DNA from: an uncultured Acidobacteriota bacterium
GTDB lineage: Bacteria; Acidobacteriota; Thermoanaerobaculia; Gp7-AA8
Assembly (NCBI GenBank): GCA_963741955.1
Contig: CAVUKB010000005.1
Location: 416,001 to 480,000, forward strand
Reading direction: 5' to 3'
Length of the DNA: 64,000 nucleotides
Part shown: in pieces, positions 31,461 through 47,310 of the stretch
Position numbering within the stretch: the stretch's first letter is position 1
Layout: each line of letters opens with the position of its first letter
Program-made: the position numbers and the translations under genes
Notes under the pieces: generated by a model
Databases searched by the model: none
Seen by the model: only the letters and a program-made list of their open reading frames with translations
Told to the model about the DNA's origin: nothing

Positions 31461-31629
31461 TCGAGAAACTCCGCGAGCGACCATCTCGCGCTCCGCGAAC
31501 CCGCTCCCGCCCCGTCCGAAGCGAGCTCTCGGGCTTTTCCATTTTTCCTGCCGAATTCACCGGATTCGAATGGTAATCGTGCGCGAGATCACGTCCGTCG
31601 CTCGATCCTGTCTTACAATAGTTCTCTAA

Positions 31630-32616
31630 ATGGTCCCATCCTTGTTCGGACTTCTGGATTCATTTCCAGCGGTAGAGGTGGTGCGTTTTCTGGTCGCCCG
31701 CGCGATGTCGGGGACGCTCTCCATTGCCTCCGGCGGCGGATTCGAGATCGTGTTCCGTCGCGGCCGCATCGTCGCTGCGTCCTGCCGCGGAGAGAACGCG
31801 GCCTCGGCTGCCGCGGAGATCGCGATTCGCGCGATGCTTCAGTGGACCGGAACGTTCTCGTTCGCAGATTCGATCGGCGATCCCGCCGGCTCCGTCGATC
31901 TCGATCCCGCCCAGTTGATCGCCACGGTGGAGGAACGCATCGATCAGAGCGTCCACTACCCGGCCGGCTCCGTCTTCCTTCTCGCCCGCGACATCGAAAC
32001 GGACGAACGATTCACGGCCGGAGAAGTCCGGGTTCTGCGGGAGCTCGACGGGACGCGTCCGATCGAGGAGGTGATCCGGGAGAGCGGTCTCGCGAGCGAC
32101 GAGGCGGCCGCAATCGTTGCATCGATGGTCCGCAGAGGATGGCTGATCTCCCGGCAGGGCTCGAAGATGAAGCTTCCCGCCGCACGACCTTCGGATTCCC
32201 CCGCTCCTGATCGGGCGGGCGTTCCACGTCCCCCCACCGAGGAGATGCCGGCACCTGCGGGATCGGCCGGGCCCGCCGAACCGAGCTCACGGGCGCCATT
32301 TCTCGCCTGTTTCACGCTCGACAATACCGCGAGCACGTCGTTCCCTCTCTTCGACGAGAGCTGCACGATCGGACGGAGCTCCAGGAATACGATCCAGCTC
32401 GATGACCCGAGCGTCTCCTCTTCGCATGCCCGCATCACGGCCACCGCCGATGGGCATCTCCTCGAGGACCTCGGGTCGAGCAACGGGACGTTCGTCAACG
32501 GCCGGAAGATCAGGACGGCGTCGCTGCGCGACAAGGACCGCATCCGGATGGGCGCGGTCTACATGGTCTACATGATTCCCGAAGTCCATCGACCCGAGAG
32601 CGAGCCTCGCCCATGA
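31630..32616 (+). CDS. DUF4388 + FHA domain protein
   Basis: N-terminal DUF4388-like region; C-terminal FHA (IGRS..VSSSHARI..DLGSSNGTFVNG). ATGA overlap with the next gene. Confidence 0.85.
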   Translation: MVPSLFGLLDSFPAVEVVRFLVARAMSGTLSIASGGGFEIVFRRGRIVAASCRGENAASAAAEIAIRAMLQWTGTFSFADSIGDPAGSVDLDPAQLIATVEERIDQSVHYPAGSVFLLARDIETDERFTAGEVRVLRELDGTRPIEEVIRESGLASDEAAAIVASMVRRGWLISRQGSKMKLPAARPSDSPAPDRAGVPRPPTEEMPAPAGSAGPAEPSSRAPFLACFTLDNTASTSFPLFDESCTIGRSSRNTIQLDDPSVSSSHARITATADGHLLEDLGSSNGTFVNGRKIRTASLRDKDRIRMGAVYMVYMIPEVHRPESEPRP

Positions 32617-35015
32617 CGGAGCTCGATCTCATCATCGTCGGCTCCGGACCCGCAGGATTGAGCGCTGCGTCTCACGCCGCGAGCAACGCTCTTCGCTACG
32701 TGGTCCTCGAGCGAGCTCCACACATCGCCGACACCATCCAGTGCTATCAGGCGCGCAAGTACGTGATGGCCGAGCCGATGGTCATCCCCGGGCGCGGCGA
32801 TCTCCCGTTCGAGGCGGGCTCGCGCGAGTCGATCCTCGACGCATGGAGTGTCCACTGTCGCGATCGCACGCTCCACATCGAGTTCGGAAAGGAAGTTCAG
32901 TCGATCGAGCGCGGCTCGTCCGGATTCACGGTCCGCACGAAGGACGGCGGAAGCTGGGCGGCCCCGAACGTGATCCTCGGCGTCGGCACGCAGGGATCTC
33001 TGCGGAAGCCGAACGTCCCGGGCGAAGATCTCCCCCACGTTTTCTATCGACTGGCCGACCCGTCCGATTACAGCGATCAGGATCTCGTCGTGGTCGGTGC
33101 AGGCGATTCCGCGCTCGAGATCGCACTCGCGCTCGCCGACGAGAACCGCGTCAGCCTGGTCGTCCGCTCGTCCGAGATCGTCCGGGCGAAGGAGAGCCTC
33201 ACCCGCGAGGCACTGAGTCGCGAAGCGAGCGGACGGATGACGATCTACTTCAGCGCGACTCTGCACAACATCGAGCCGGGATTCACCGATCTCGACGTTC
33301 GCGGAGAGATCGTCCGTGTTCCCGCACAGGCTCTCTTTCTCAAGCTCGGAGCGGTCGCACCACGGAAGTTTTTCGAGTCGTGTGGCATCGAGTACAGCGG
33401 GAAAGATCGCGACGCCATCCCTCTCCTCTCGGAGCACTACGAGACGAGCGTTCCGGGCCTCTATCTGATCGGCGCGGCAAGCGGACGCGATCTGATCAAA
33501 CTCGGGATGAATCAGGGATGGGAAGTCGTCGAGCACATCCTCGGGCACGAGGTCGAACCCGCCGACGAAGCGGTGCTGCGGGAGAGAGTTCCCTTTCTGG
33601 AAGGAACCGTCCACCAGAGGATCGGACAGCTCAGAGAAAAGATTCCGCTATTCGCGGCCGCCGAGGTCGAGCAGATCCGCGAGATGCTGCTCGCGACGGA
33701 GTTGCGGGAGTTCACGAACGGGCAGACCGTCATCCGGCAGAACGATTACACGAACGAGTTCCTGGTGATCGCGAGCGGCCGGGTCGAGGTCCTGGTCCGG
33801 AGCGAGGAAGGCGTGGAGAGCCGGGTCGCCGAGCTGACCGCGGGGAACTTCTTCGGCGAGATGAGTCTCATCTCGGGACGTCGCCGGAGTGCGACGGTGA
33901 ATGTGGTCGGCCCGGCGAAGATCTTCGCCATTCCGCGAAAAGCCATGCTGAAGCTGATCCGCACTTCGCCCGCAGTGCGCGATCTGGTCGATCGCGCATT
34001 CCTGATCCGGGCGATTCAGGGCTACCTCTTCCCGAATGTCTCCACCGCACGGCTGGGAGAACTGGTCGGACGTGCCGAGCTCCTCTCGCTCCCGAAGGGT
34101 CACGCGGTGTTCTACGAGGGCGCCGAAGGAGACGCGTTCTACCTCATCCGGAATGGAATGGTGAAGATCGCCCGCAAGTCGGGTGATCGGGAGCTCGTTC
34201 TCTCCTATCTCGTCGCAGGCAACTTCTTCGGAGAAACGGCACTCCTTTCGAACCAGCCGCGGACTGCGACCGTCACCACGATCTTTCCCTCCGACCTGAT
34301 TCGCCTCAGCCGCGACGATTTCCAGTCGTTCCTCGCGGCCAATCCTCAGTTCCGCGCCGACCCGATGAAGAAGCTCGAGGAGCGACGGATCGGCGCTCTC
34401 GTCGCCGATGCGACACCGGGAGCGGGGAACGTTCTGAGCGATCTGATTCGCGAAGAAGTGGTGATGGGGACGGACACCCTGATCATCGACGAGCATCTCT
34501 GCATCCGCTGCAGCAACTGCGTCCGCGCGTGCGAGGGCGTTCACGATGACGGTCAATCGCGGCTCTCGCTCACCGGCATTCGTCTGTACAACGTCCTCGC
34601 ACCGAACTCCTGCTGGCAGTGCGAGAACCCTCTCTGCATGCTCGACTGCCCGCCGGATGCGATCGCGCGCGACCCGCGAGGAGAGGTCTACATCCGGAGC
34701 AACTGCATCGGATGCGGAAACTGCGAGTCGAATTGTCCCTACGGCAACATCTTCATGATTCACCCCAAACCGAAGTGGGATCCATTCGGCTGGGTCAAGT
34801 CACTCTTCGCCCGCGCTGCGGGAAGATCGGCCGACGGCAACGGCGGCGAGCACGGCATCGAGCGGACTCTCGCCGTGAAGTGCGATCTCTGTCGCGACCT
34901 CGGCAGCGGACCGGCATGCGTGCGGAGCTGTCCCACCGGTGCCGCGCTGCGTCTCACGCCGCAGGAGTATCGCAGCACGCTGGAGGAGATCGTGATCACC
35001 AGAGGAGATCGCTGA
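32613..35015 (+). CDS. FAD/NAD(P)H oxidoreductase fused to two cNMP-binding domains and a 4x[4Fe-4S] domain
   Basis: GSGPAG and GAGDSA; FFGEMSL..RSATV and FFGETAL..RTATV; CIRCSNCVRAC, CWQCENPLCMLDCP, CIGCGNCESNCP and CDLC..ACVRSCP. Confidence 0.9.
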   Translation: MTELDLIIVGSGPAGLSAASHAASNALRYVVLERAPHIADTIQCYQARKYVMAEPMVIPGRGDLPFEAGSRESILDAWSVHCRDRTLHIEFGKEVQSIERGSSGFTVRTKDGGSWAAPNVILGVGTQGSLRKPNVPGEDLPHVFYRLADPSDYSDQDLVVVGAGDSALEIALALADENRVSLVVRSSEIVRAKESLTREALSREASGRMTIYFSATLHNIEPGFTDLDVRGEIVRVPAQALFLKLGAVAPRKFFESCGIEYSGKDRDAIPLLSEHYETSVPGLYLIGAASGRDLIKLGMNQGWEVVEHILGHEVEPADEAVLRERVPFLEGTVHQRIGQLREKIPLFAAAEVEQIREMLLATELREFTNGQTVIRQNDYTNEFLVIASGRVEVLVRSEEGVESRVAELTAGNFFGEMSLISGRRRSATVNVVGPAKIFAIPRKAMLKLIRTSPAVRDLVDRAFLIRAIQGYLFPNVSTARLGELVGRAELLSLPKGHAVFYEGAEGDAFYLIRNGMVKIARKSGDRELVLSYLVAGNFFGETALLSNQPRTATVTTIFPSDLIRLSRDDFQSFLAANPQFRADPMKKLEERRIGALVADATPGAGNVLSDLIREEVVMGTDTLIIDEHLCIRCSNCVRACEGVHDDGQSRLSLTGIRLYNVLAPNSCWQCENPLCMLDCPPDAIARDPRGEVYIRSNCIGCGNCESNCPYGNIFMIHPKPKWDPFGWVKSLFARAAGRSADGNGGEHGIERTLAVKCDLCRDLGSGPACVRSCPTGAALRLTPQEYRSTLEEIVITRGDR

Positions 35016-35016
35016 G

Positions 35017-35856
35017 GTGCCGGTCCGGAGACATGCAGGCCGCTGGCAGCTGATCTCGGCGCTTCTTCTCGCCGCACTGCTCGGCTCATACGTCTGGTAC
35101 GAGCAGCGCGAGCCGTTCACCCATGGCGGATCGACGATGGGTCTGATCTACGGAATCGTGGCGCTCGCGCTGATGGGCCTCCTTCTCTGGTTCGGCATCC
35201 GGAAGCGCTCCTACCGAAGCCGCTTCGGCACGCTCGAGGAGTGGCTGCAGTCGCACATCTATCTCGGCCTCTTCACGTTTGCGGTGGTGATCGCGCACAC
35301 CGGATTCCAGTTCCGCGATCGGATGGCGATCGCGCTCCTGATCGTGGTCACTCTGGTGATCGCCAGCGGAATCCTCGGCGCGATTCTCTACAAGACGGTG
35401 CCGCGTCTGCTCACCGAGGTCGACTCGAATCTTCCTGCGGACGCGATGTCGGAAGAGATGAACCAGCTGACGCGATCGATGTCGCGGGCCGCATCGGGCA
35501 AGTCGGCCCCGTTCCAGCGCATTTACAAACGGCTGGTGCAGGAAGCAATCCCTCCTCCTCTCGCGGGATGGCGTCTCCTGCTCCGTTCTTCGAACCGACG
35601 GAATCCCACCACTCGTCCGGACGACTGGTCGTCATTCCTGGGGATGGTTCCGGAAGACGAACAGGCGGAGCTGCGACAGCTTCTGGTGCTCTCACGGCAG
35701 CAGAAGGAACTGCAACTGCGCCTGGTTGCACAGCAGAAGTACCGTAACCTGCTCGATTTCTGGCTCTACATGCACCTCCCTCTTTCCATCGCCATGATCC
35801 TCCTGATCATCGCGCATCTGTGGGGCGTGTTCTATTACGGCAAAATCCAGTTCTGA
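35017..35856 (+). CDS. Membrane protein with two i/i+14 His pairs (cytochrome b / ferric reductase-like)
   Basis: SHIYLGLFTFAVVIAH and MHLPLSIAMILLIIAH in TM helices. Confidence 0.72.
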   Translation: MPVRRHAGRWQLISALLLAALLGSYVWYEQREPFTHGGSTMGLIYGIVALALMGLLLWFGIRKRSYRSRFGTLEEWLQSHIYLGLFTFAVVIAHTGFQFRDRMAIALLIVVTLVIASGILGAILYKTVPRLLTEVDSNLPADAMSEEMNQLTRSMSRAASGKSAPFQRIYKRLVQEAIPPPLAGWRLLLRSSNRRNPTTRPDDWSSFLGMVPEDEQAELRQLLVLSRQQKELQLRLVAQQKYRNLLDFWLYMHLPLSIAMILLIIAHLWGVFYYGKIQF

Positions 35857-35865
35857 GGAATCGGC

Positions 35866-38301
35866 GTGTCCTTTCTGCTTCAGAAGATCGACCGGCCCAG
35901 AGTCACTCTGGTCGAGGTGAAGTCGCCCCGATTGACGATCGGGCGAGGCACGGGTGCGGACCTTCGATCCGAAAACGCCGCGGTGGCGCTCGAGCACGCG
36001 GTCGTCGAACTGAGGAAGGATGCCGGATACGAGATCTTCGACCGGGGGAGCATCACCGGGACGTACGTGAACGGGCGTCCCATCGAGAGCCGGCTCCTCG
36101 CGGCAGGCGATCGGATCGAGATCGGCGACCTGGTGATGGACGTCCAGGTTGCGGCGGCGGATCGTCCCCTCTTCCTCCGCGTCGAGAAAACGCGGGAAGA
36201 GAACGAAGCTCCGCTTCAGACCGGCGCGGCGGACGAGCGTCCCGTCTTCCTCACCGGAGCGCGGGTCGGAGCGCCTCGGATTGACTTCTCCCGCGCCTAC
36301 GCACTGCGCCAGGGCTTTCTGTCGAAAGGTGGAATGGTCTTCTCCCTGATGGCCCTCACGGCGATTCTCGTTGCGGCGGCGATCATCGGTGCGAAGGGCC
36401 TCGCCTACCAGCCCGGGCCGATCTCCGTCGCGCACGCGACGGCGACCCGACCCGATGGCGAGCGCGTCATCGGCGAACACGAGTGCAACGCGTGTCACGT
36501 TCCCTTCGGAGGAGCGAGCAACCACAAGTGCGGCGAGTGCCACGAGCAGTCGTTCCACCAGGCGAGAGAAGCGAAGGTCGGCCCGTGCATCGACTGTCAC
36601 GCAGAGCATCGCGACGTCCCGAATCTCGCGATGGTCCAGGCACAGCAGTGCGTTCGATGTCATCGGAATCTCGAGGGGAGCTCCATCACCGCGAAACGAA
36701 CCATCACCGCGTTCGAGACCGACCATCCCGAATTCACGATCCGGCTGGCGAGCGGAAAGAACGAGGCGGTCAACACCGCGACGGCTCGTACCGCGGATGC
36801 GATTCCACTGAAGTTCAACCACCAGTGCCACCTTCAGGGAAAGTGCAATCTCACTCCGCCCACTGCGAGCGACCCGAGACGGGAGAAGGTCGAGCTTCAC
36901 TGTGTCTCCTGCCACACTTTCGATCCGCAGACCGGAGCGGCCCAGCCGGTCCGGTACGAGACCGCATGCTCGAAATGTCATCCGCTCACGTTCGACAATC
37001 GCTTTCCGCCCGTCCCCCATGGTCTCTCGCTCGAGACCGTCGCCGGAGTGATCGCGAACACGTACGCCGGGAACGAAGATCTGCTCACCAGATCGCCGTC
37101 CGAGATCGAAGGAATCTTCGCCCGGAGGGAACGACGCACCCTCGACACGTCGAGTATCGTCGTTCGAAACGCCCAACGCGTGATGCAGACCCGTTGCGCC
37201 CACTGCCACGTGATGGAGAAAGACGGACGCAACGTCGTTCCGGTGAAAGAAAGAGCGGTGTGGTTCCCGGGAATGCGCCGCTTCAACCACTCCGTCCATA
37301 TGGCGGAGACCCTGAAACTCTCGTGTGTGGACTGCCATCACGGAATCGGATCGAGCAGGAAGGCATCCGATCTCTCTCTTCCGTCGATCAACAGCTGCAA
37401 AGGATGCCATCGCGCCAGCGCAACATTCGCGAACGCAGGTCTCGGCACGTGCACGCGCTGCCACTACTACCATGAAGCGACCAGGAAGCTCGGCCCCGGA
37501 TGGACGGCACGTGCCAGCCTGGTCTCGACGAAACTCTCCAAACCAGTCATCCCGAACAAGGGATCGAACGACAAGCAGAAGAAGGGGTGGGACTTGATCC
37601 TGGCATTCGTCTGGCCGATGCTCGCCATCGGCGGAATCATCATCCTCGTGTTCCTTGCGGTCGTCGGAGTGGCGGTCTTCTTTGCCGCACGCCGCGACCG
37701 GCGTGCAGCCGGCGAAGCGCTGGCGGGAGTCGGTGCGGCGACGGGGCCGATTCAGAAACGGACTCCCTCCCCGGCGGCGCCATCTCCCCCACTTTCCTCA
37801 CCTTCGACGCCCTCTCCGGCCGCATCCTCGCCAGCCGCGCCCTCTCCGGCCGCACCCTCGCCGGCCACATCCTCTCCGGCGCCACCCTCGGCTGAGCCGG
37901 CGGTGCCGAAGGATGCGACGCCTTCCGTGCCCGAACCGACGATCGCGGTTCCTCTTCCTCAACCCGAGCCGCCTGCGAAGGACGGCAGCACGGTCATGAT
38001 CCAGTGGCACGGATCGCTGATCGGAACCGCCGGAAAGCTCGAAGGAAAACGCATTCCGGTGACCAGCGACGGGTTCTACATCGGCCGAGACAAGGCGGCC
38101 GCGACGCTGGTGATCGATGACGGACGCGTCTCCCGCCGTCATTTGTGGATCGGCGTGGAGGACGGCGAGGTCGTCGTCGTGGACCAGGGCTCCACGAACG
38201 GCACTTTCGTCAACGGAGAGCGCGTGACGCGGCGGGTTCTTGCCGCAGGTGATATCATTACCATCTCCGACAATGTTGCATCTCTGAAGTACGAAGTCTG
38301 A
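35866..38301 (+). CDS. FHA - TM - decaheme cytochrome c - TM - Pro-rich linker - FHA
   Basis: 10 CxxCH motifs between two hydrophobic segments, with FHA signatures (IGR..H..S.NGT.VNG-like) at both termini. Confidence 0.88.
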   Translation: MSFLLQKIDRPRVTLVEVKSPRLTIGRGTGADLRSENAAVALEHAVVELRKDAGYEIFDRGSITGTYVNGRPIESRLLAAGDRIEIGDLVMDVQVAAADRPLFLRVEKTREENEAPLQTGAADERPVFLTGARVGAPRIDFSRAYALRQGFLSKGGMVFSLMALTAILVAAAIIGAKGLAYQPGPISVAHATATRPDGERVIGEHECNACHVPFGGASNHKCGECHEQSFHQAREAKVGPCIDCHAEHRDVPNLAMVQAQQCVRCHRNLEGSSITAKRTITAFETDHPEFTIRLASGKNEAVNTATARTADAIPLKFNHQCHLQGKCNLTPPTASDPRREKVELHCVSCHTFDPQTGAAQPVRYETACSKCHPLTFDNRFPPVPHGLSLETVAGVIANTYAGNEDLLTRSPSEIEGIFARRERRTLDTSSIVVRNAQRVMQTRCAHCHVMEKDGRNVVPVKERAVWFPGMRRFNHSVHMAETLKLSCVDCHHGIGSSRKASDLSLPSINSCKGCHRASATFANAGLGTCTRCHYYHEATRKLGPGWTARASLVSTKLSKPVIPNKGSNDKQKKGWDLILAFVWPMLAIGGIIILVFLAVVGVAVFFAARRDRRAAGEALAGVGAATGPIQKRTPSPAAPSPPLSSPSTPSPAASSPAAPSPAAPSPATSSPAPPSAEPAVPKDATPSVPEPTIAVPLPQPEPPAKDGSTVMIQWHGSLIGTAGKLEGKRIPVTSDGFYIGRDKAAATLVIDDGRVSRRHLWIGVEDGEVVVVDQGSTNGTFVNGERVTRRVLAAGDIITISDNVASLKYEV

Positions 38302-38345
38302 CAACGTCTCGGCTTTGCCGCCGGACGGGCGTAGAGGGGAAAGGT

Positions 38346-40139
38346 GTGTCCTCGAAAATGACGAATGCAGGAATCCGTCGATCTCGAGTCCCCAGGGTCC
38401 TCATCCCGATCGTCGTCTTGGCGCTCCTCGGCGTCGGCATTCCGGCAGCCGCCGGAGAACGGGGACGCGGGGTCAGGACTCCATCATCGGTCCGTTTCAC
38501 CACCTCGCCTGATTGCGGCGGTTCGGCCGACGGCTCTCCCTGTCTCGAAGCCAGCGGAGAATTCGCACCTCTTCAGACCGACGAGGTGGAGACCCTCGCC
38601 CGCAATGCCGCGGCGGCTCTATCCGATCCGCACATGACCATCGCCGTCGTCGACCGCGCCGGGCGGGTGCTCGCGCTGGCGCGCAAGCCGGAAGCGGATC
38701 CGGCCAACGACGATCTGGCGGTCGGCCTCGCGCGCACCGCCGCATTCTTCAGTCACGACATGGCCCCGCTCTCCTCGAGGACGGTGCGATTCATCAGCGG
38801 AGTGCACTTTCCACCGGGAGTCCGGGATGCCCCCACCGCGCCGCTCTACGGGATCGAGAACACCAACCGCGGATGCGATCTCAACGTGACGTTCAACCCC
38901 GGAAAATGCGTCCCTCGGGCGACTTCGCTCAACGCTCTCCCGTGCAACGCATTCGACGCGCGCGGTTGCGGCACCGGTCCGGTGACCGGAAAGGTGCAGC
39001 CGTACGATTCTCATGACGGCGGAAAGCATCCGAGCTGGCTCGGACTCGAAGGGCCGGGCAACCCGAAAGGACTCCCGGTGAACGCGGGTGGCATCCCGAT
39101 CTACAGAGTGAGTGACGTGCGCGTGACCGGAGGATCGCTGGAGAACGGCACCGCGAATGTCCACGCCGAGGGCCCGGGTCATCTCGTCGGGGGAATTGGT
39201 GTGGCCGGCGTCCCATCGTCACAGGCCGAATTCGCCGCCTTCTCGAGCGTCGCTCTCAGCAGCAGTCATCTCTTCCCCGCGCCTTCGTTCCCGCTGCCTT
39301 CGCCGGGACGCGTCTTCATAGGGGGGGTCCGCGTTCCGTTCGTCGAACAGGGCATCCGGCCGACCGGCACTGAGGCCGGTTCCGCCGTCGACGCGACGTT
39401 CATCGTCGGACCGCAGACGGGAGGATGCGTCGCGAACCGCTATCTGGTCGGTCCCGCGGCCGGTTCCGCACTCTCCCGCGACGAAGTCGACCGGATCATC
39501 CACCAGGCATTCGATGCGGCGGAGCGAACCCGCGCCGCGATCCGCCTGCCGCTCGGCAGCTATGCACGGATGGTGTTCGCGGTCTCCGATCTCGACGGAT
39601 CGATCCTCGCGCTCTACCGGATGCCGGATGCGACAGTCTTCTCGATCGACGTCGCGGTGGCGAAATCGCGCAACGTGATCTACTTCAGCAGCGCCGACGT
39701 CTCTGCCGATCTCCCCGGCCTTCCCTCCGGAACCGCGGTCTCGAACCGGACCATCAGCTTCGGAGCTCAACCGCTCTTCCCCGCCGGTATCGACGGCACG
39801 ACTCCCGGTCCGTTCTTCGGACTCTTTCAGCACGATCTCGGCAACGTCTGCTCCCAGGGGACGCAGCTCGCGAATGCGAATCAGAACGGAGTGGTCTTCT
39901 TCCCCGGGAGCATCCCGCTCTACCGCGACGGCCATCTGGTGGGAGGGCTCGGCGTGAGCGGCGACGGCGTGGAGCAGGACGACTACGTTTCCTATCACGG
40001 CGCGGTCGGATTCCATCCGGCGATGTCGATCTGGTCGGATCAGCACGAGATCCGCGGCGTCCGCATTCCATTCCTCAAGTTTCCCCGGCATCCGGAGGAC
40101 GTGACCGAACAGACGAAGGAGACATTCGATGCACCGTGA
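38346..40139 (+). CDS. Exported heme-binding protein with two GlcG/HbpS-like domains
   Basis: Signal peptide; IAVVDRAG..GGIPIY..LVGGIGVAG and AVSDLDG..GSIPLY..LVGGLGVSG. Confidence 0.8.
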   Translation: MSSKMTNAGIRRSRVPRVLIPIVVLALLGVGIPAAAGERGRGVRTPSSVRFTTSPDCGGSADGSPCLEASGEFAPLQTDEVETLARNAAAALSDPHMTIAVVDRAGRVLALARKPEADPANDDLAVGLARTAAFFSHDMAPLSSRTVRFISGVHFPPGVRDAPTAPLYGIENTNRGCDLNVTFNPGKCVPRATSLNALPCNAFDARGCGTGPVTGKVQPYDSHDGGKHPSWLGLEGPGNPKGLPVNAGGIPIYRVSDVRVTGGSLENGTANVHAEGPGHLVGGIGVAGVPSSQAEFAAFSSVALSSSHLFPAPSFPLPSPGRVFIGGVRVPFVEQGIRPTGTEAGSAVDATFIVGPQTGGCVANRYLVGPAAGSALSRDEVDRIIHQAFDAAERTRAAIRLPLGSYARMVFAVSDLDGSILALYRMPDATVFSIDVAVAKSRNVIYFSSADVSADLPGLPSGTAVSNRTISFGAQPLFPAGIDGTTPGPFFGLFQHDLGNVCSQGTQLANANQNGVVFFPGSIPLYRDGHLVGGLGVSGDGVEQDDYVSYHGAVGFHPAMSIWSDQHEIRGVRIPFLKFPRHPEDVTEQTKETFDAP

Positions 40140-42183
40140 CCGTCGCTTCTCCGGTCGCGGATCATCTCTGTTCGCGATCGCTGCGCTGTTCCTTCTCCTG
40201 GCGCCGTTCTGCCGGTCGTCTGCAGCAGAGCCTCCGACCATCACCATCGACGGCGGGACGCTCATTTCGACGTCCTCGCTCCCGGTCGTCATATCAGGAA
40301 CGGCCTCGCCACCCGACGCGCTCGTTCAGGTCACGATCCGGGCCCGAACGATCTCGACTGTCGTTCGCGACGGACGCTGGCGCGTCGAATGGCCGGAACC
40401 GATTCCGGTCGGGACACACACGGTCGAAGCGGCGCTCGTCGACCGGTACCACACACTCGCCACCGCGACCTCGCTGTTGAAGATGACCGTGACGGCACGG
40501 CTCGCGAGAAAACCGCTGGACGCGGCGCAACCGAAGGAGACCACGGTCCGGCCGGCGCTTCGACCTGAAGACTACCAGGCGTTCCCTGACCGCTGGCGGA
40601 TCACTCCTCCCACCGACTACGACCTTCTGGTTCATCCGCGGTCGAAACTCGATCCGTACAACCAGAACATCCTCAAAGGGGACAAGCCGATCATCGGGCA
40701 GGAGATCTTCCTCGACCTCACCGGTATCTCCGACACGCTGGTGGAAGGGCGCAAGGTGCCCACCGGATCGACGGTCAGCGCGCGCAACCCGGGAAGCATC
40801 GACTTCTTCGGGGAGGGCGACCAGGCGTCGTTCGCAGAGAACGTTCTCCTCTCTGCCGATCTGTTCCGCGGTCAGACTGCATTCCGTCCCGCCGACTGGC
40901 GCGCTCGCCTCACGCTCGTCGGCAACTTCAATCACGTTTCCGTCCGCGAGAACGCCGTGGTGAACCCGGACGTCCGCCGCGGCACGTCACGAGATTCCGG
41001 CTACCTCGGAGTGCAGGAAGCCTTCTTCGAGAAGAAGATCGCGGATCTTTCGCCGAACTTCGATTTCGTCTCGATCCGCGCCGGCGTTCAACCGTTCGTC
41101 AGCGATTTTCGCGGATTCGTCTTCGATGACTCGAATCTCGGCGTCCGCCTCTTCGGCAACGCCCGATCGAACCGGTATCAGTACAACCTCGCCTGGTTCG
41201 ACCGCCTGGAGAAGGACACCAACAGCGGTCTGAATGTCATCGACAAGCTGCGCAAGCAACAGCTCCTCATCGCGAATCTCTACCGGGAGGACTTCCTGGT
41301 TCCCGGTTACACGGTCGAGGCGAGCGCTCATTACCTGAGGGATCGGGGACGCATCGCGTACGACAGCAACGGCTTCCTCGTCCGTCCCGATCCGATCGGC
41401 GATTTTTCTCCCCACCAGATCACCGCGACGTATCTCGGATTCGCCGGATTCGGAAGGCTCGGACGGATCAATGTCGATCACGCGCTCTACTACGTCTTCG
41501 GGAAGGACAGCCACAATCCGATCGCCGGGGCAGACCCGATCGGCGGCGGAGTCGGTCCCGATGGCGCCGCCGCCGGACGCGAGAGCGTCGACATTTCCGC
41601 GGAAATGGCGGCCGTCGAGCTGTCGGTGGATCGCGACTGGTACCGGCCGCGAATCGGATACTTTTACGCGAGCGGGGATCACGACGGCTTCGACCGGCAT
41701 GCGAACGGATTCGCGGCGATCTTCGCGAACCCGAACTTCGCGGGCGGGGGATTCAGCTTCTGGAACCGTCTCGGACTCCCTCTCCCCGGTACCGGCGTCG
41801 CGCTCCTCCACCGCGGAAGTTTCCTCCCCGATCTCAACAGCAGCAAGACTGAAGGTCAGCCGAACTTCGTCAATCCGGGCCTCCATCTCGCGACAGCGGG
41901 TGTCGACGTCGATCTCACCACGAAGCTCGTGCTCCTCCTCACCACCAACTATCTCCGGTTCGATCAGACTGACGTGCTGCAGGGCGTCCTCTTCCAGGAC
42001 GCGATCGACAGAGAGATCGGGTGGGACCTCTCGATCGGAGCGCGTTACCGGCCGTTCCTGAACAACAACGTGATGCTGCTGATCGGGACCGCGGCATTCG
42101 TTCCGGGAAAGGGATTCGAACAGATCTACGACAGGAAAGACACGCTCTACCAGCTTTTCACCGACCTCACGGTGAAATTCTGA
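40129..42183 (+). CDS. Probable outer-membrane beta-barrel with N-terminal Ig-like domain
   Basis: Signal peptide, alternating amphipathic beta segments and C-terminal Phe (DLTVKF). Confidence 0.7.
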   Translation: MHRDRRFSGRGSSLFAIAALFLLLAPFCRSSAAEPPTITIDGGTLISTSSLPVVISGTASPPDALVQVTIRARTISTVVRDGRWRVEWPEPIPVGTHTVEAALVDRYHTLATATSLLKMTVTARLARKPLDAAQPKETTVRPALRPEDYQAFPDRWRITPPTDYDLLVHPRSKLDPYNQNILKGDKPIIGQEIFLDLTGISDTLVEGRKVPTGSTVSARNPGSIDFFGEGDQASFAENVLLSADLFRGQTAFRPADWRARLTLVGNFNHVSVRENAVVNPDVRRGTSRDSGYLGVQEAFFEKKIADLSPNFDFVSIRAGVQPFVSDFRGFVFDDSNLGVRLFGNARSNRYQYNLAWFDRLEKDTNSGLNVIDKLRKQQLLIANLYREDFLVPGYTVEASAHYLRDRGRIAYDSNGFLVRPDPIGDFSPHQITATYLGFAGFGRLGRINVDHALYYVFGKDSHNPIAGADPIGGGVGPDGAAAGRESVDISAEMAAVELSVDRDWYRPRIGYFYASGDHDGFDRHANGFAAIFANPNFAGGGFSFWNRLGLPLPGTGVALLHRGSFLPDLNSSKTEGQPNFVNPGLHLATAGVDVDLTTKLVLLLTTNYLRFDQTDVLQGVLFQDAIDREIGWDLSIGARYRPFLNNNVMLLIGTAAFVPGKGFEQIYDRKDTLYQLFTDLTVKF

Positions 42184-42223
42184 GCGCCGACGAATCGAAG
42201 ATCACGGAAGACCACCGAAGACG

Positions 42224-45200
42224 ATGAGCAGACCGATGCGACGTTCGATACGACTTGTGGCCAGCCTCACGTTGATCGCGGGAGCGGTGCTGGTGATCGC
42301 GGAAGCTCCGCTCGCCGGCGATCCCACCCCCGAGAACGCCCTTCTCCGACAGTCGGCCGCAGATGCCGCTCACAAGAGCCGCGGTTGCATCAGCTGCCAT
42401 CACGGGATCGAGCCGATGCATTCTTCCCCTGCAGTGAGGCTCGGATGCACGGACTGCCACGGAGGCGATGCGTCCGCGATCTTCGTTCCCGGCAACGACG
42501 CGAAAGAGGTCGAGCTTCGCGCACACGTCCAACCCGTTCACCCCGAGCACTGGAGCCGCAACGGTCACCGATCCTCCGCCAATCCGGAGCGCTCTTACAC
42601 CTGGCTCAACGAGGAAACGCCCGAGTTCATCCGCTTCATCAATCCGGGCGATCTTCGCGTCGCGCCGGAGACCTGCGGAGCGTGTCACCCGAGCGAAGTG
42701 GTGCGCGTCCCTCGCAGCACCATGGCCACCAGTGCCACGTTCTGGGCCGCGGCCGCGTATGCGAACGGCATCCTCGATCTGAAGTACGGTGTGCTCGGCG
42801 AGAACTACACGCGCGATGGGCAACCTGGCGCGATCATTCCGAAAGCGAATCCGCAACAGCCTGATCCCGCGATGGGAAGCGTCCCTGCGCTCTACCCGCT
42901 TCCGCGATGGGAGCTCACCCAGCCGGGCGAGTACTTCCGCGCGTTCGAGCGCGGCGGCCGCTTGCAACCGACTACTCCTCCGGAGATCGGGAATCCGAAC
43001 CTCGAGGCCGAGCCCGGACGACCCGACATCCGCCTCAGCTCACGTGGCCGCGGGACCGGACTCCGGATCAGCCCCGCACTGATCAATCTCCACAAGACGC
43101 GCCTGAACGATCCGCATCTCTTTTTCCTCGGGACCAACGACCATCCCGGCGACTACCGTTCGAGCGGCTGCAGCGGATGCCATGTCGTTTATGCGAACGA
43201 CCGTGACCCGCTCCACTCCGGACCGTGGGCGGCGTATGGCAACACGGGGCTGTCCGCAACGAAAGACCCCACCATTCCTCACGACGAGAAGGGGCACCCG
43301 ATCGTCCACCGGCTCACCCGATCGATCCCCACCAGCCAGTGCATGTCCTGCCACATGCACCAGCCGAACTCTTTCCTCAACACATACCTCGGATACACCA
43401 TGTGGGACTACGAATCCGACGCCGATCTCCTCTTTCCGAAGGAGCAGCGGTATCCGACCGAGGAGGAGAAGCGAGCCAGTCTCGACCGGGATCCGGAAGG
43501 TGCTGCGGTGCGGGGCCTGTGGAGCAACGGGAAGTTCCTGGAGAACGTCCGTGACCTCAACGCAAAGGCGAAGCACACGCAATTCGCCGATTACCACGGA
43601 CACGGATGGATCTTCCAGGCGGTGTACCGCCGTGACCGGAAGGGACGGCTGCTCGACAAGGAAGGAAAGGTCGTCCCGTTCGACGATCCGCAGAAGTTCC
43701 AGAAGGCGGTCCATCTCGAAGACATCCACCTCGAGAAGGGAATGCACTGCGTCGATTGCCATTTCGACGTCGATTCTCACGGCAACGGGATGATCCACAC
43801 CGACTACGCCGCATCGATCGAGATCGAGTGTCAGGACTGCCATGGCACGATCGAGCGCACCTCGACGTTGCGGACGTCCGGCCCCGCCGCACCGGAGGGA
43901 GGAACGGATCTCTCTCTCGGCACGACGCCGTTCGGCCAGCGGCGGTTCGCGTGGCGTGGAGGAAGCCTCTACCAGCGGTCGATGCTCACACCCGGTCTGG
44001 AGTGGCGCGTCATTCAGGTCAAGGACAGCATCGATCCGGCTTCTCCCGACTACGACGAGCGCGCGGCGAGGGCGAAGACGATGCAACGCGACGGAACCAG
44101 CTGGGGCACGGCGGCCGGTCACGATCTCGCCCACCCCGAATCGGCGATGACCTGCGACAGCTGCCACTCGTCATGGATGACAAGCTGCTCCGGCTGTCAT
44201 CTGCCGCAGGAAGCGAACGTCCGCTCCCGGATGATCCGCTACGAGGGAAACACCACCCGCAACTACGCTTCGTACAATCCGGAGACCATCCGCACCGATG
44301 TCTTCATGCTCGGGATCAACGGAACGAACAAGGGACACCGCATCGCTCCGGTCCGCTCGTCCAGCGCGCTCGTTCTCAGCTCGACCAACGCGAGCCGCGA
44401 TCACATCTACATCCAGCAGCCGACCATTTCCGCTCCCGGGTTCAGCGGACAGGCGTTCAATCCTCACGTCCCTCACACCGTGCGCACCACCGAATCGAAG
44501 CAGTGCAGCGACTGCCATCTCTCGGAGGAGAACGACAACAACGCCTGGATGGCCCAGCTCCTCCTGCAGGGAACGGACTGGGTCAATCTCATCGGCCGTT
44601 ACGCGTGGGTCGCCGAAGAGAATGCAGGGCTCGAGGCGGTCGGAGTGACGGAGTGGGAAGAGCCGCAGGCGGTGATCGGATCGAGCCTCCAGTCGATCGT
44701 CTATCCCGACGACTACGCCGCGCATCAGAAGAGAAAGGGTGAGCTGGAGGTCGCACACCATCACCATGGCCATCAGGTGCGAAGCATCCAGCTTCGCGGC
44801 GAGTATCTCTACACCGCACAGGGAAGCGACGGATTGGTGGTGTACGACGTCGCCAACGTCGACAACAAGGACTTCTCCGAACGGATCGTCAGCGCACCGG
44901 TCTCGCCGCTGGGACAACGCACTTACGTCCGGACGAAGGACGCGACGTGCGTCGCACTTCCGACCACCATGCCGATGGCGCCGTCACGCAAGACGCCGCC
45001 ACTGAGTGGAGAGCAGAAGATCCACCCTATCTACCGCTATGCACTGATCGGAGATCGGGTGGAAGGAGTGGTGCTGGTCAACGTCGAGACGCTGACCGAC
45101 GGCGACCCGGAGAACAACTTCCTGAAGCGGGCGCTCACCTTCAACCCGGACGGTGCTCTCGATGGAACGACCGCGATCACCATCGCCGGCAACTACGCGT

Positions 45201-45922
45201 ACGTCGTCGGCGATCACGGATTGACGGTGCTCGACCTCGACGAGCCGCTCTCGCCGCGCATCGTCGCGAACGTCCCGGACATCGTGAAGGGCACCGGTGT
45301 CGACGTCCAGTTCCGCTACGCGTTCGTGACGGATCAGGACGGACTGAAAGTGGTCGACATCACGTTTCCGGAAAAGCCGGCGATCGTCGCACGACTCCCG
45401 ATCGAAGACGCTCACGGCGTGTACGTGGCCCGCACTTACGCCTACGTCGCAGGAGGCCGCAACGGAATGGTCATCGTCGACGTCGAGAACCCGGAGAGAC
45501 CGTTCGTCGACCAGACCTTCACCGGCGGCGTGCTGCGCGACACGCGCGACATCAAGATCGGATCGACCAACGCGAGTCTTTTCGCCTACGTCGCAGACGG
45601 GACGAACGGATTCCACGTCGTGCAGCTGACCTCGCCGGACCGTACACCAGGATACGAGGGATTCAGTCCTCGTCCGGCGCCCGTTCTGATCGCGAGCCGG
45701 AAGACCGAAGGCCCCGCAGTGGCTCTCTCGAGAGGCCTCGATCGCGACCGTGCGGTGGACGAGAGCGGCAATCAGGTCGCGGTCTTCAACCGGATCGGAG
45801 CGCGTCCGATGAATCTCCAGGAGATGCAGAGACTCTATCTGCGAGACGGAAAGATCTACCGGGTGAGTGACCGCCCGACGGCTCCCGAGAAGCACGACTC
45901 GCAACGGAGAAAAGAGCGATGA
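42224..45922 (+). CDS. Large exported decaheme cytochrome c with C-terminal LVIVD repeats
   Basis: 10 CxxCH; YAYV..GLTVLD, YAFV..GLKVVDI and YAYVA..GMVIVDV repeats. Confidence 0.88.
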   Translation: MSRPMRRSIRLVASLTLIAGAVLVIAEAPLAGDPTPENALLRQSAADAAHKSRGCISCHHGIEPMHSSPAVRLGCTDCHGGDASAIFVPGNDAKEVELRAHVQPVHPEHWSRNGHRSSANPERSYTWLNEETPEFIRFINPGDLRVAPETCGACHPSEVVRVPRSTMATSATFWAAAAYANGILDLKYGVLGENYTRDGQPGAIIPKANPQQPDPAMGSVPALYPLPRWELTQPGEYFRAFERGGRLQPTTPPEIGNPNLEAEPGRPDIRLSSRGRGTGLRISPALINLHKTRLNDPHLFFLGTNDHPGDYRSSGCSGCHVVYANDRDPLHSGPWAAYGNTGLSATKDPTIPHDEKGHPIVHRLTRSIPTSQCMSCHMHQPNSFLNTYLGYTMWDYESDADLLFPKEQRYPTEEEKRASLDRDPEGAAVRGLWSNGKFLENVRDLNAKAKHTQFADYHGHGWIFQAVYRRDRKGRLLDKEGKVVPFDDPQKFQKAVHLEDIHLEKGMHCVDCHFDVDSHGNGMIHTDYAASIEIECQDCHGTIERTSTLRTSGPAAPEGGTDLSLGTTPFGQRRFAWRGGSLYQRSMLTPGLEWRVIQVKDSIDPASPDYDERAARAKTMQRDGTSWGTAAGHDLAHPESAMTCDSCHSSWMTSCSGCHLPQEANVRSRMIRYEGNTTRNYASYNPETIRTDVFMLGINGTNKGHRIAPVRSSSALVLSSTNASRDHIYIQQPTISAPGFSGQAFNPHVPHTVRTTESKQCSDCHLSEENDNNAWMAQLLLQGTDWVNLIGRYAWVAEENAGLEAVGVTEWEEPQAVIGSSLQSIVYPDDYAAHQKRKGELEVAHHHHGHQVRSIQLRGEYLYTAQGSDGLVVYDVANVDNKDFSERIVSAPVSPLGQRTYVRTKDATCVALPTTMPMAPSRKTPPLSGEQKIHPIYRYALIGDRVEGVVLVNVETLTDGDPENNFLKRALTFNPDGALDGTTAITIAGNYAYVVGDHGLTVLDLDEPLSPRIVANVPDIVKGTGVDVQFRYAFVTDQDGLKVVDITFPEKPAIVARLPIEDAHGVYVARTYAYVAGGRNGMVIVDVENPERPFVDQTFTGGVLRDTRDIKIGSTNASLFAYVADGTNGFHVVQLTSPDRTPGYEGFSPRPAPVLIASRKTEGPAVALSRGLDRDRAVDESGNQVAVFNRIGARPMNLQEMQRLYLRDGKIYRVSDRPTAPEKHDSQRRKER

Positions 45923-47310
45923 ACATCAGCCGCAACCCACACCGAGCTCCGGGCAGGCGGGCTCAATCGATCTCGATCCCGGGTTGGTTCGCCCTGATCC
46001 TTCTCCTCGGATCCGGATCCGTGCCGGCCGCTCTCGCACAGATGACACCCGCAGCCGAGACTCCGGTCCTGAAGGAAGGGATGTACGTCGGGCCGGTCTC
46101 CTGCGCCGCGTCCGGATGCCACGGCAGTCCTGCACCGGTCGAGGGTGCGAAAGTGCTGATGAACGAGTACGACACCTGGCTCCACGCTCCTTCACCGACG
46201 CACGTACATGCGTGGGAAGTTCTTCTTCAGCCACTCTCCAGACGGATCGCGAAGAACCTCGGCCTCGAACAACCGCCCGAGAAATCGTCGGTCTGCATCG
46301 CCTGCCATTCGATGAACGTTCCGCAGAACCTGCAGGCCACGACCGGAGCGCTGGAGATCGCCGACGGCGTCTCGTGTGAAGGATGTCACGGGCCGGCCGG
46401 AGGATGGCTGGCCGGACACACCAGCGACGGGTGGTCGCACGCCGATTCCGTGGCGAAGGGAATGACCGATCTCAAGGACCTCCCGACCCGCGCTCGAACC
46501 TGTCTCGGCTGCCACATGGGCAACGACTCCAGGGAAGTCAACCACGACATGATCGCCTCCGGGCATCCGATCCTGAACTTCGAGCTCGACAACTTCTCGG
46601 GCAGTCCTCTCATGCCGAATCACTGGAAACCTGACCCCGCGCGGGACGGTGTGCCTGCGTGGGCCGTCGGACAAGTGGTTGCGCAACGCGAAGAAGCGGC
46701 CAACCTCGTCCGGCATGCCAACGGACCGCAGTGGCCCGAGTTCACGCACATGAGCTGCGCGAGTTGTCACCATCCCCTGAGGGAGGGAGAGTGGAGACAG
46801 GAGCGCGGATACCGCTACCGCCCCGGAATGCCTCTCCGGAGCCAGGCCCGATGGCTGGTGCTTCGTCACATCGTCGAAACCGCGGCCCCGCAGGAGTCCG
46901 CGCCGCTGACGGAAGAGATGGCGCAACTCTCCGACGCCGTCGGCCGGATGAAGGATCGAGCACGCATCGCGGAGCTCGCCGGTGCGGTGGAGGGCCGCCT
47001 CGATCGCGTTCTTCCGGCCGTGCAGGCGAAGAACTGGACGGACGCCGACGTCCGGAAGATGGTCGGCCTGATCGCCGGAGATGCCGATCGTTACGAGATC
47101 GCCGACCGGCAATCGGCCGAACAGGCCACCCTTGCCCTCATCTCTCTGGTCAGTCAACTCGATCGCTCCTCCCGCGGATCGATGTCGGGCACCGTCGACC
47201 AGCTCTATCAGCTCCTCCAGCGGCTCCGCTATCCCGACGAATACGACCGGAAGGAATTCGCCTCGACGCTACGTACGCTGCTGAAGCCTTCGACCGCGCC
47301 TGTGGGTTGA
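45919..47310 (+). CDS. Multiheme cytochrome c (c554-like, about 5 hemes)
   Basis: CAASGCH (CX4CH), CIACH, DGVSCEGCHGP, CLGCH and CASCH; signal peptide; ATGA overlap. Confidence 0.87.
   Translation: MNISRNPHRAPGRRAQSISIPGWFALILLLGSGSVPAALAQMTPAAETPVLKEGMYVGPVSCAASGCHGSPAPVEGAKVLMNEYDTWLHAPSPTHVHAWEVLLQPLSRRIAKNLGLEQPPEKSSVCIACHSMNVPQNLQATTGALEIADGVSCEGCHGPAGGWLAGHTSDGWSHADSVAKGMTDLKDLPTRARTCLGCHMGNDSREVNHDMIASGHPILNFELDNFSGSPLMPNHWKPDPARDGVPAWAVGQVVAQREEAANLVRHANGPQWPEFTHMSCASCHHPLREGEWRQERGYRYRPGMPLRSQARWLVLRHIVETAAPQESAPLTEEMAQLSDAVGRMKDRARIAELAGAVEGRLDRVLPAVQAKNWTDADVRKMVGLIAGDADRYEIADRQSAEQATLALISLVSQLDRSSRGSMSGTVDQLYQLLQRLRYPDEYDRKEFASTLRTLLKPSTAPVG

Follow-up and report, generated by a model that had tools for sequence, protein, structure and literature searches.

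A candidate two-module envelope electron-transfer gene cluster in an uncultured Acidobacteriota bacterium

The DNA analyzed here is a stretch of 64,000 nucleotides (nt) from an uncultured Acidobacteriota bacterium (GTDB lineage Bacteria; Acidobacteriota; Thermoanaerobaculia; Gp7-AA8), corresponding to positions 416,001 to 480,000 of the forward strand of contig CAVUKB010000005.1 in GenBank assembly GCA_963741955.1. We refer to this whole stretch as the window and number it from its first letter. Within positions 31630 to 47310, the window carries eight co-oriented open reading frames (ORFs) on the + strand, designated g1 to g8, which we consider a candidate system for electron transfer in the cell envelope. 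An earlier reading of the sequence (the original prediction) had taken them for a signal-gated trans-envelope electron conduit, made up of eight co-oriented genes with overlaps or gaps under 50 bp and about 25 c-hemes. All coordinates were confirmed, with gaps of at most 44 nt, and the domain assignments of the eight proteins agreed with Pfam and NCBIfam scans and with motif counts. By motif count, g4, g7, and g8 together contain 24 CXXCH heme c motifs and one invariant CX4CH variant. The genes are arranged as follows.

31630..32616, + strand: g1, cytoplasmic DUF4388 and FHA protein, 328 amino acids (aa); Pfam
32613..35015, + strand: g2, cytoplasmic fusion of an FAD/NAD(P)H flavoprotein, two cNMP domains, and a four-cluster ferredoxin, 800 aa; Pfam and Cys motifs
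35017..35856, + strand: g3, inner-membrane protein, putative di-heme cytochrome b, 279 aa, five predicted transmembrane (TM) helices; AlphaFold2 (AF2) model and motifs
35866..38301, + strand: g4, bitopic FHA-decaheme-FHA cytochrome, 811 aa; Pfam, motif and hydropathy counts
38346..40139, + strand: g5, secreted double GlcG/HbpS-like (DUF336) protein with conserved Cys, 597 aa; Pfam HbpS-like
40129..42183, + strand: g6, predicted outer-membrane protein with an Ig-like domain and an 18-strand barrel, 684 aa; AF2 model and fold searches
42224..45922, + strand: g7, secreted decaheme protein with a C-terminal LVIVD beta-propeller, 1232 aa; Pfam LVIVD and motif count
45919..47310, + strand: g8, secreted pentaheme cytochrome, 463 aa; Pfam Cytochrome_C554 and motif count

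From g1/g2 to g7/g8, the junctions are, in order, a 4-nt overlap, a 1-nt gap, a 9-nt gap, a 44-nt gap, an 11-nt overlap, a 40-nt gap, and a 4-nt overlap. We read the overlapping pairs g5/g6 and g7/g8 as translationally coupled. A scan of positions 30800 to 48400 returned no promoter-like sites (1.8 expected) and nine terminator-like sites (9.4 expected). Among sequencing runs, no RNA data set containing the stretch was listed, and the one DNA run that contains it is a soil metagenome that may be its source.

The inner-membrane side, g1 to g4

The cytoplasmic protein g1 matches FHA (E 5.5e-21) and DUF4388 (E 1.4e-9) in Pfam. Its neighbor g2 joins three parts in one chain. Residues 5-320 form a TrxR/YpdA-like FAD/NAD(P)H flavoprotein; this is followed by a pair of cNMP-binding domains at about 345-590 and by a four-cluster ferredoxin at about 620-790. 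The Pfam matches of g2 are Pyr_redox_3 (6.8e-35; also Pyr_redox_2), cNMP_binding (2e-43, in two stretches), and Fer4 families including Fer4_11 (PF13247, 8.7e-7), and its NCBIfam matches to YpdA and to HydN/NrfC/DmsB all fall below cut-off. The Cys motifs at 630-640, 667-679, 698-708, and 757-773 are of the [4Fe-4S] type and are four in number, as in four-cluster ferredoxins, and 16 cysteines are invariant in 47 of 47 sequences. Both cNMP cassettes, of the form FGE...R[ST]A (FGEMSL...RRSAT and FGETAL...PRTAT), are kept in 47/47 sequences as well and, judged by these motifs, are intact. The original prediction had called the system signal-gated. The intact cassettes and the recurrence of FHA domains with these cytochromes agree with that description, whereas gating itself, by cyclic nucleotides or by phosphothreonine, is what the domain content would suggest.

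The AF2 model of g3 (predicted local distance difference test score, pLDDT, 86) shows five long helices in the membrane and, on the cytoplasmic side, an insert that is also helical. Two motifs of the same form, W76-x3-H80-x13-H94 on TM3 and W249-x3-H253-x13-H267 on TM5, are accompanied by S117-G118-x-x-G121 on TM4. The pairs His80/His94 and His253/His267, each spaced i/i+14, are invariant in all 50 close homologues. Moreover, the four histidines are retained in every one of 61 diverse representatives at 21-52% identity, a set with only eight invariant columns, in keeping with the four-His membrane protein of the original prediction. Two His pairs on two helices, which is the di-heme arrangement of the PF01794 and PF01292 families, were thus found in 61/61 sequences. 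Pfam matches within the g3 family are weak and include Ni_hydr_CYTB (cytochrome b561) in 41, Ferric_reduct in 25, and DUF4405 in 13 of 50 members. The window copy itself stays under the gathering scores (25.9 versus 30.1 bits and 20.4 versus 28 bits for the PF01794/PF01292 families) and has no DUF4405 match. A Foldseek search of the g3 model against the Protein Data Bank (PDB) gave no match at E<=0.001, and VIA-align returned only generic helical bundles with Z values of 8-9.5, which lie inside the background for helical proteins. The family is large, with 4619 representatives at 50% identity for E<=1e-3 and 2510 for E<=1e-10. Oriented by the positive-inside rule, His80 and His253 would hold a heme near the cytoplasm, and His94 and His267 would hold a second heme near the periplasm.

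The original prediction had also proposed multimer modeling of the oxidoreductase with the membrane protein and the FHA-cytochrome. We carried out a complex prediction with g3, residues 596-800 of g2, and two riding hemes, in three runs and three controls. The Fe-S end of g2 was placed under g3 with a score of 0.65 in all three runs, compared with 0.09 for the best control, while the contact agreement between runs was at least 88% and the pLDDT of the partner was at least 69. Of 157 solved complexes, 116 attain the mark of the complex prediction tool, as do 2 of 215 mismatched pairs. In the predicted interface, g2 contributes its first and fourth Cys motifs (627-643 and 763-776), which face the g3 loops 63-77, 125-136, and 243-247. 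These predicted cytoplasmic loops lie, in the model, directly below His80 and His253.

The cytochrome g4 begins with an FHA domain in the cytoplasm, followed by a TM segment (151-181), ten CXXCH motifs in the periplasm (207-533), a second TM segment (574-611), a Pro/Ser-rich linker, and a second cytoplasmic FHA domain. Pfam recognizes FHA in two stretches as well as Cytochrome_C7. As read from the sequence, this topology is self-consistent, with both FHA domains predicted in the cytoplasm and every heme motif between the two hydrophobic segments.

The outer-membrane side, g5 to g8

The secreted protein g5 has a signal peptide and matches HbpS-like in two stretches (Pfam, 1.1e-24). A profile search against the PDB retrieved EfgA/GlcG (3.2e-15), a PduO-type protein (2.5e-9), and HbpS entries (2e-4 to 0.02), and these relatives (GlcG/EfgA, PduO-C, and HbpS) are binders of small ligands or heme. 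Twin-arginine export of g5 was considered and dropped, as its orthologues carry ordinary Sec-type signal peptides.

The beta-barrel that the original prediction had assigned to positions 40129-42183 was recovered in the AF2 model of g6 (pLDDT 82.1; predicted TM-score, pTM, 0.72). After its signal peptide, the protein has an Ig-like domain in the periplasm (37-119), which a linker modeled with low confidence connects to a beta-barrel of 18 strands (183-683) that ends in a C-terminal Phe. The top Foldseek matches are AlgE entries (E 2.4e-18; TM-score on the target 0.6-0.69). Independently of Foldseek, VIA-align also ranked AlgE highest (Z 24.6, root-mean-square deviation 3.1 Å over 366 aligned residues), with OpdQ, OccD2, OccAB, MOMP, and chitoporin at Z 20-23. 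AlgE, OpdQ/OccD/OccAB, MOMP, and chitoporin are 18-strand substrate-specific channels, and the model of g6 has the 18 strands of the AlgE/OprD(Occ) class. At E<=0.1, Pfam barrel families, such as that named alginate export, matched none of 17 g6 members, in which only Ig-like domains were found (Big_13 in 12/17). Homologues of g6 fill more than 7358 clusters at 90% identity. The loop between strands 13 and 14 (residues 515-584) has 70 residues, includes the motif GGGFSFWN, is among the most conserved parts of the protein, and is extracellular by strand parity. By analogy with the constriction loops of such channels, it may fold into the lumen. The barrel of MtrB has 26 strands, and an 18-strand pore such as that modeled for g6 is unlikely to sheath a multiheme protein. 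As an AlgE/OprD-like, 18-stranded, channel-sized pore and not an MtrB-like sheath, g6 is no demonstration that electrons cross the outer membrane.

Ten CXXCH motifs occupy residues 55-765 of g7, and its C-terminal part matches LVIVD (Pfam, 1e-22); an NCBIfam match to ExtM (1.3e-21) is sub-threshold. The ten heme motifs are invariant in 59/59 sequences, and the identity among 28 homologues from Acidobacteriota, Binatia, and Methylomirabilota is 62-68%. Such conservation looks more like that of a tightly constrained enzyme than that of a fast-evolving surface cytochrome. Sequence and profile searches of the PDB with g7 gave nothing below E 0.07. The ESM Atlas holds no model of g7, and it contains cytochrome-LVIVD clusters from several phyla that are labeled "hypothetical protein" or by domain content only. 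LVIVD domains are typical of cell-surface proteins.

In g8, a CX4CH motif at 62-68 is accompanied by four CXXCH motifs, and a further region (about 300-463) lies after the last heme motif. All five motifs, CX4CH included, are invariant in 58/58 sequences. Pfam assigns Cytochrome_C554 (4.6e-8), and phmmer against the PDB found cytochrome c552 (5ze8, 1.4e-4) and c554 (1e-3). The match of g8 to the MtrA/DmsE family TIGR03508 reached 24 bits against a cut-off of 192, and that to Mtrc-MtrF_II-IV reached 16.8 against 30; these sub-threshold matches were seen in g8 only. By motif inspection, both g7 and g8 carry ordinary signal peptides with no Cys lipobox.

Conservation of the locus and its two modules

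A gene-neighborhood search, which the original prediction had proposed, was performed on the best 80 of 130 relatives of g6, with one genome per species and ORF-level BLAST with the eight window proteins. The closest named loci in this set are Thermoanaerobaculia metagenome-assembled genomes (MAGs). Upstream of g6, 53 loci extend for 8.6 kb or more; among these, g5 was found in 52, g4 in 53, g3 in 48, and g2 in 46, the 53rd locus having g5 downstream and on the opposite strand. Both g7 and g8 were found in all 60 loci with at least 5.2 kb downstream. The order g2 to g8 is therefore kept, with synteny of the set across dozens of genomes at species level, so that the earlier remark on uncharacterized homologous clusters in other taxa was correct. 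Heme counts are kept across loci as well, with 9-10 motifs in g4 (in 53/53 loci), 10 in g7, and four plus CX4CH in g8. An FHA ORF ends no more than 400 nt from the start of g2 in at least 25 of 41 loci with enough upstream DNA, and a C-terminal FHA domain is present in at least 25 of 64 g4 homologues, both being lower bounds from BLAST. None of the eight flanking ORFs of the window has a match in the 80 related loci, which identifies g1 to g8 as the conserved unit.

The loci without g2 or g3 are five from outside the Acidobacteriota (two of Binatia, two of "delta" genomes, and one of Methylomirabilota whose flank is short) and one from Thermoanaerobaculia (L024), together with two in which a longer g4 displaces g2 out of range. 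A g3 homologue is nevertheless encoded elsewhere in the genome in 5/5 non-Acidobacteriota genomes. There, a three-gene unit encodes a protein of about 510 aa with two cNMP domains and Fe-S motifs, a g3-like protein of about 357 aa, and a fusion of about 1300 aa. The fusion comprises three FHA domains, a TM segment, 9-10 heme motifs, a second TM segment, a Fer4 dicluster, and Pyr_redox_3 (in Binatia, a "delta proteobacterium" MAG, and Methylomirabilota). It is complete in three of the four genomes examined, the fourth copy being cut by a contig end. In two genomes, the three-gene unit lies 14 and 20 kb from a block of g4core-g5-g6-g7-g8, on the same contig and strand.

Two further observations concern these non-Acidobacteriota loci. 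In the whole-genome search, each g3-like match of L089-L092 (genomes G001-G004) contains one in-frame TGA; since ORFs of 356-357 aa that are g3-like were called in the three of these genomes examined, this TGA is probably located ahead of the true start. In addition, the g4core-g8 block of Binatia and "delta" genomes is preceded by a conserved trio (L068 2131-6477, L048 2129-6650, and L063 2272-5874), which encodes family-less proteins of about 461 aa and about 201 aa and a Peptidase_M10/dockerin protein of about 725 aa that is split in L063.

By gene content, the locus thus consists of two separable modules, module A (g1-g4) and module B (g4core-g8), which in this lineage are joined via the single decaheme protein g4. 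The heme domain of g4 is closer to the module B cytochrome (30-32% identity) than to the module A cytochrome (22-23%). At the sequence level, g4 combines the FHA/TM architecture of module A with a heme domain nearer that of module B.

Ten further g3-family loci come from other Acidobacteriota. A cNMP/Fe-S neighbor is present in four of them, in two of which it is fused with g3 into one ORF of 826-828 aa. Flavoproteins adjoin in five and a separate FHA protein in one, and in two more the FHA domain is on the multiheme cytochrome itself. The neighboring membrane-anchored cytochromes carry 7, 10, 29, 32, or 34 hemes. The CXXCH-rich cytochromes of 29, 32, and 34 motifs lie next to or near g3-family genes at L103 9207-11842, L107 9304-13434, and L109 13194-15758, which suggests that very long heme wires of other lineages are fed by the same inner-membrane module. 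Among 401 sampled Acidobacteriota genomes (the unpublished genome G054 included), which are related and not independent, g6 was found in 41 (E<=1e-20), a g3-family gene in 81 (E<=1e-10), and both in 38.

Upstream of the cluster, the window encodes an amidohydrolase and a sulfatase, and the downstream ORFs match no Pfam family. DDE transposase genes flank the cluster together with its unconserved neighbors (26486-27898, - strand, DDE_5; 51934-53253, - strand, DDE_Tnp_1/DUF772). An ORF of 651 aa (48405-50360, - strand) has neither a Pfam family nor a counterpart in the 80 related loci, and another of 1067 aa (54387-57590, - strand) has no Pfam family. Finally, positions 21896-23686 (- strand) encode a 596-aa protein made up mostly of ankyrin repeats (Ank_2, E 2.2e-57). 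Proteins of this kind are uncommon in bacteria.

A proposed electron path, its rivals, and known systems

The explanation that we favor, with about even confidence, is a two-module envelope electron-transfer system in which electrons would run from NAD(P)H through g2, g3, and g4 to g8 and g7, with g5 and g6 forming the outer-membrane channel side. If the cofactor sites are occupied as their ligands suggest, the flavoprotein part of g2 would oxidize NAD(P)H and pass the electrons to FAD, from which they would travel along the four [4Fe-4S] clusters to a last cluster set against the cytoplasmic face of g3. In g3, two stacked bis-His b-hemes would provide the crossing of the inner membrane. The ten c-hemes of g4, held beside g3 by the two membrane helices, would then receive the electrons, and the path would bypass the quinone pool. 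From their positions, the cNMP domains within g2, like the FHA domains that g1 and g4 carry, could switch or assemble the path. Module B would work in the periplasm at the outer membrane, where g8 and g7 would take electrons from g4, probably in that order, with g7 as the terminal redox protein. Meanwhile, g5 and g6 might let a small substrate or product through the outer membrane without sheathing a cytochrome. Such a path would dissipate rather than conserve energy, which would explain why sensors are built in. We favor outward flow because of the membrane potential and the NAD(P)H-type flavoprotein; electrons moving from the negative inside to the positive outside are favored by the membrane potential, as in NOX/FRE enzymes.

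The two halves of this scheme differ in strength. As a cytoplasm-to-periplasm electron path, module A is well supported by the invariant histidines of g3, the predicted docking of g2 on g3, and the part fusions in other phyla, whereas module B is less clear. The continuous path from NAD(P)H to the outer membrane that the original prediction had drawn holds for the inner half, in which the flavoprotein, the Fe-S wire, the putative di-heme b protein, and the membrane decaheme cytochrome are one conserved unit, but is not supported as drawn for the outer half. Several points weigh against the scheme as a whole. Inward flow, opposite to the direction that we favor, has been proposed for two related candidate sets, PCC4 and a trio from Ferrigenium, which are described below. 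Also, g3 stays below the Pfam gathering scores, and the fold searches of its model gave no heme protein above background. The score of 0.65 for the g2-g3 complex was obtained with our own alignments and riding hemes, outside the calibration of the tool, and may partly reflect likeness to solved complexes of four-cluster ferredoxins with membrane anchors. Modules A and B stand apart in five non-Acidobacteriota genomes, so module B can exist without an adjoining module A. In addition, the cell-surface habit of LVIVD domains would fit a surface-exposed g7.

This last point bears on a first competing explanation, a true conduit of the MtrCAB/Pcc type, in which g8, g4, or the N-terminal cytochrome part of g7 would sit inside g6, g7 would be exposed on the surface, and NAD(P)H electrons would reach insoluble or extracellular acceptors, for example Fe(III)/Mn(IV) oxides or humics. 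The gene order of a decaheme protein, a barrel, and a large multiheme protein recalls mtrA-mtrB or omaB-ombB-omcB, and the block of barrel, g7, and g8 is kept in 60/60 loci. LVIVD repeats occur as cell-surface repeats. However, the barrel has 18 strands and is most similar to AlgE and Occ/OprD channels (Z 20-25), with MtrB absent among the best 50 matches listed by each fold search, and its conserved 70-residue loop on the extracellular side (515-584) may well fold back into the lumen. Neither g7 nor g8 has a lipobox, the 62-68% identity of g7 across phyla would be unusual for a surface cytochrome, and g4 has limited reach, being tethered by its two membrane helices. Related clusters have been read as conduits by He, Barco, Emerson and Roden (2017, Front Microbiol 8:1584, PMC5566968) and in the ptd preprint (bioRxiv 10.1101/2023.11.21.568154). 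On balance, we regard a conduit of this type as unlikely, and the "trans-envelope conduit" of the original prediction, which is unproven for the outer half, is probably too strong a term for a set with an AlgE/OprD-class channel and without lipoprotein signals on g7 and g8. For annotation, g5 to g8 advise caution, in that a barrel beside a multiheme cytochrome need not mean an Mtr-like conduit, which matters for calls of extracellular electron transfer in metagenomes.

The flow might also be inward, with g7 and g8 oxidizing a periplasmic or extracellular donor (Fe(II) or Mn(II), for example, or some compound of sulfur or nitrogen imported via g6), g4 passing electrons through g3 to quinone, and g2 acting as a regulatory element or side branch. 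The c554-like character of g8 would suit a donor-side role, by comparison with the pair of HAO and c554, and the g3 family resembles quinone-reactive b cytochromes. Such a direction has been drawn for PCC3 and PCC4, whose hosts are mostly of Fe(II)-oxidizing niches (PMC5566968), and the FHA-nonaheme trio of Ferrigenium was expressed in all Fe(II)-oxidizing conditions tested (bioRxiv 10.64898/2026.01.22.701106). Against this, the Fe-S wire and the flavoprotein are fixed partners of g3, through fusions to g3 or to the cytochrome and through predicted docking at the cytoplasmic heme, which argues that the path ends inside at NAD(P)(H) rather than at quinone. A quinone site was not identified, and to reduce NAD(P)+ with donors of this kind, electrons would have to move strongly uphill and against the membrane potential. 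We therefore consider uptake rather unlikely. Very unlikely, in our view, is that two independent systems happen to be neighbors, module A serving some other periplasmic acceptor and module B having its own electron source. Their separation in 5/5 non-Acidobacteriota genomes examined is what this would predict, as are the 43 of 81 g3-positive Acidobacteriota genomes without g6 and the presence of other multiheme proteins of 7-34 hemes beside g3-family genes. Within Acidobacteriota, however, the modules are contiguous in 46-48 of 53 loci, the gaps in the window are under 50 nt, and 38 of the 41 g6-positive genomes have a g3-family gene. The locus has, moreover, one membrane decaheme protein only, g4, whose architecture is that of module A and whose heme domain is nearer that of module B.

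Returning to the two-module system, a bolder form of it, which we put forward tentatively and hold to be possible but on the doubtful side, is that module A is a split NOX-like bacterial machine. Its wire would be switched by cAMP/cGMP and by Ser/Thr-kinase signaling and would bypass quinone, driving a 25-heme chain to a propeller-cytochrome enzyme with its own channel. If true, this would define a new class of regulated extracytoplasmic reductase, serving, for example, reductive metal acquisition, detoxification, or extracellular superoxide production, with a wide distribution that takes in soil Acidobacteriota, Binatia, and Methylomirabilota, among others. Should the present reading of the inner module be right, it would provide a quinone-free electron route across the inner membrane that is gated by signaling molecules; we know of no characterized respiratory or extracellular-electron-transfer system with such a signal-gated route. 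The g3 family numbers in the thousands, and its genes adjoin those of cytochromes with 7 to 34 hemes, so that one biochemical test would annotate many "hypothetical" genes of soil, sediment, and marine bacteria, iron oxidizers included.

Compared with characterized systems, the locus shares with MtrCAB/PioAB/MtoAB and the Geobacter Pcc clusters the placement of multiheme genes beside an outer-membrane barrel gene, and it could likewise move electrons toward the surface. It differs in that g6 is an 18-strand protein of the AlgE/OprD class, whereas MtrB is a 26-strand sheath. Furthermore, g1 to g8 include no family-level MtrA/DmsE or MtrC match (sub-threshold only) and no lipoprotein cytochrome, and their input would come from a flavo-Fe-S protein via a di-heme b protein, not from quinol via a CymA/NapC-type protein. 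With the ferric-reductase-domain enzymes of the NOX/FRE type and with MsrQ, g3 shares two putative bis-His b-hemes, two helices, and the i/i+14 His spacing, and NOX also has a cytoplasmic NAD(P)H flavin donor. However, g3 is a separate family below the Pfam thresholds, its flavoprotein is TrxR/YpdA-like rather than FNR-like, and its acceptor would be a chain of c-type multiheme proteins. A four-cluster Fe-S wire seated on a di-heme b subunit is known from FdnH-FdnI of formate dehydrogenase-N, although the Fe-S wire of g2 lies at the cytoplasmic face of the membrane and that of FdnH at the other.

The closest likeness is to sets already in print as candidates, in publications that were available in part and are compared here to that extent. 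PCC3 and PCC4 are candidate porin-cytochrome clusters, and PCC4 contains a porin, periplasmic cytochromes of 4, 5, and 10 hemes, and an Fe-S gene (pfam13247) upstream of a five-helix inner-membrane protein (PMC5566968). In this "IMP" of PCC3 and PCC4, TM4 carries SGXXG and the WX3HX13H motif occurs twice; two b-hemes were predicted for it, and inward flow to quinone was proposed for PCC4 (PMC5566968). The ptdABCDEFG genes encode a pentaheme protein, a porin, an FAD/NAD(P) oxidoreductase, a tetraheme protein, a cNMP-binding protein that carries a pair of [4Fe-4S] clusters, a ferric-reductase-like membrane protein, and a decaheme protein, and their function is called completely unknown by the authors (10.1101/2023.11.21.568154). 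By description and motifs, the core parts recur in g1 to g8. The protein g3 is likewise modeled with five helices, of which TM4 bears SGXXG while TM3 and TM5 each bear WX3HX13H; the pfam13247-type Fe-S, cNMP, and FAD/NAD(P) oxidoreductase parts are all present, fused in g2, which ends one nt before g3; and decaheme, pentaheme, and barrel (candidate porin) genes are also present. On the other hand, the set of 4-, 5-, and 10-heme cytochromes is not matched, as the window has an anchored decaheme (g4), a propeller decaheme (g7), and a pentaheme protein (g8) with no tetraheme gene. Here, flavoprotein, cNMP, and Fe-S parts form one 800-aa protein, the decaheme protein g4 has two membrane helices and two FHA domains, and the additions are a DUF4388-FHA gene, a propeller protein of the decaheme-LVIVD type, and a protein with GlcG/HbpS-like domains in tandem. 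As hosts, soil Acidobacteriota here contrast with marine or Fe-oxidizing Proteobacteria there.

The plan of module A is also found in the trio of Ferrigenium straubiae, which consists of an FHA-nonaheme cytochrome, a five-helix protein, and a [4Fe-4S] protein (10.64898/2026.01.22.701106). Both have an FHA domain on the cytoplasmic side of an anchored multiheme protein, a five-helix protein, and a cytoplasmic Fe-S protein, whereas the trio, unlike g1 to g8, has no barrel, propeller cytochrome, or fused flavoprotein. The authors of that preprint, which describes the trio from transcriptomes only, saw no redox motif in the membrane protein and proposed flow to quinone. A cytochrome/barrel cluster of Thermoanaerobaculia (Flieder et al. 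2021, PMC8528874) was considered as the same cluster and rejected, since, as far as it is described in the available part, its cytochromes are different ones and come with a PPIase-like protein and one with NHL repeats. The available text of a preprint on peat clusters EET1-4 (10.64898/2026.05.27.727921) names no FHA, LVIVD, propeller, or barrel that would tie these clusters to g1 to g8. Our literature search found no decaheme-LVIVD protein, tandem GlcG-like protein, DUF4388-FHA gene, or single-polypeptide flavo-cNMP-Fe-S subunit, a result on which preprint supplements and figures may bear. The original prediction, which knew of no characterized system with this architecture, made too much of its novelty: the core gene set was already in print as the candidates PCC4 and ptdABCDEFG, both experimentally untouched. 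Overall, g1 to g8 are an uncharacterized variant of a candidate kind that has already been noticed and is experimentally untouched.

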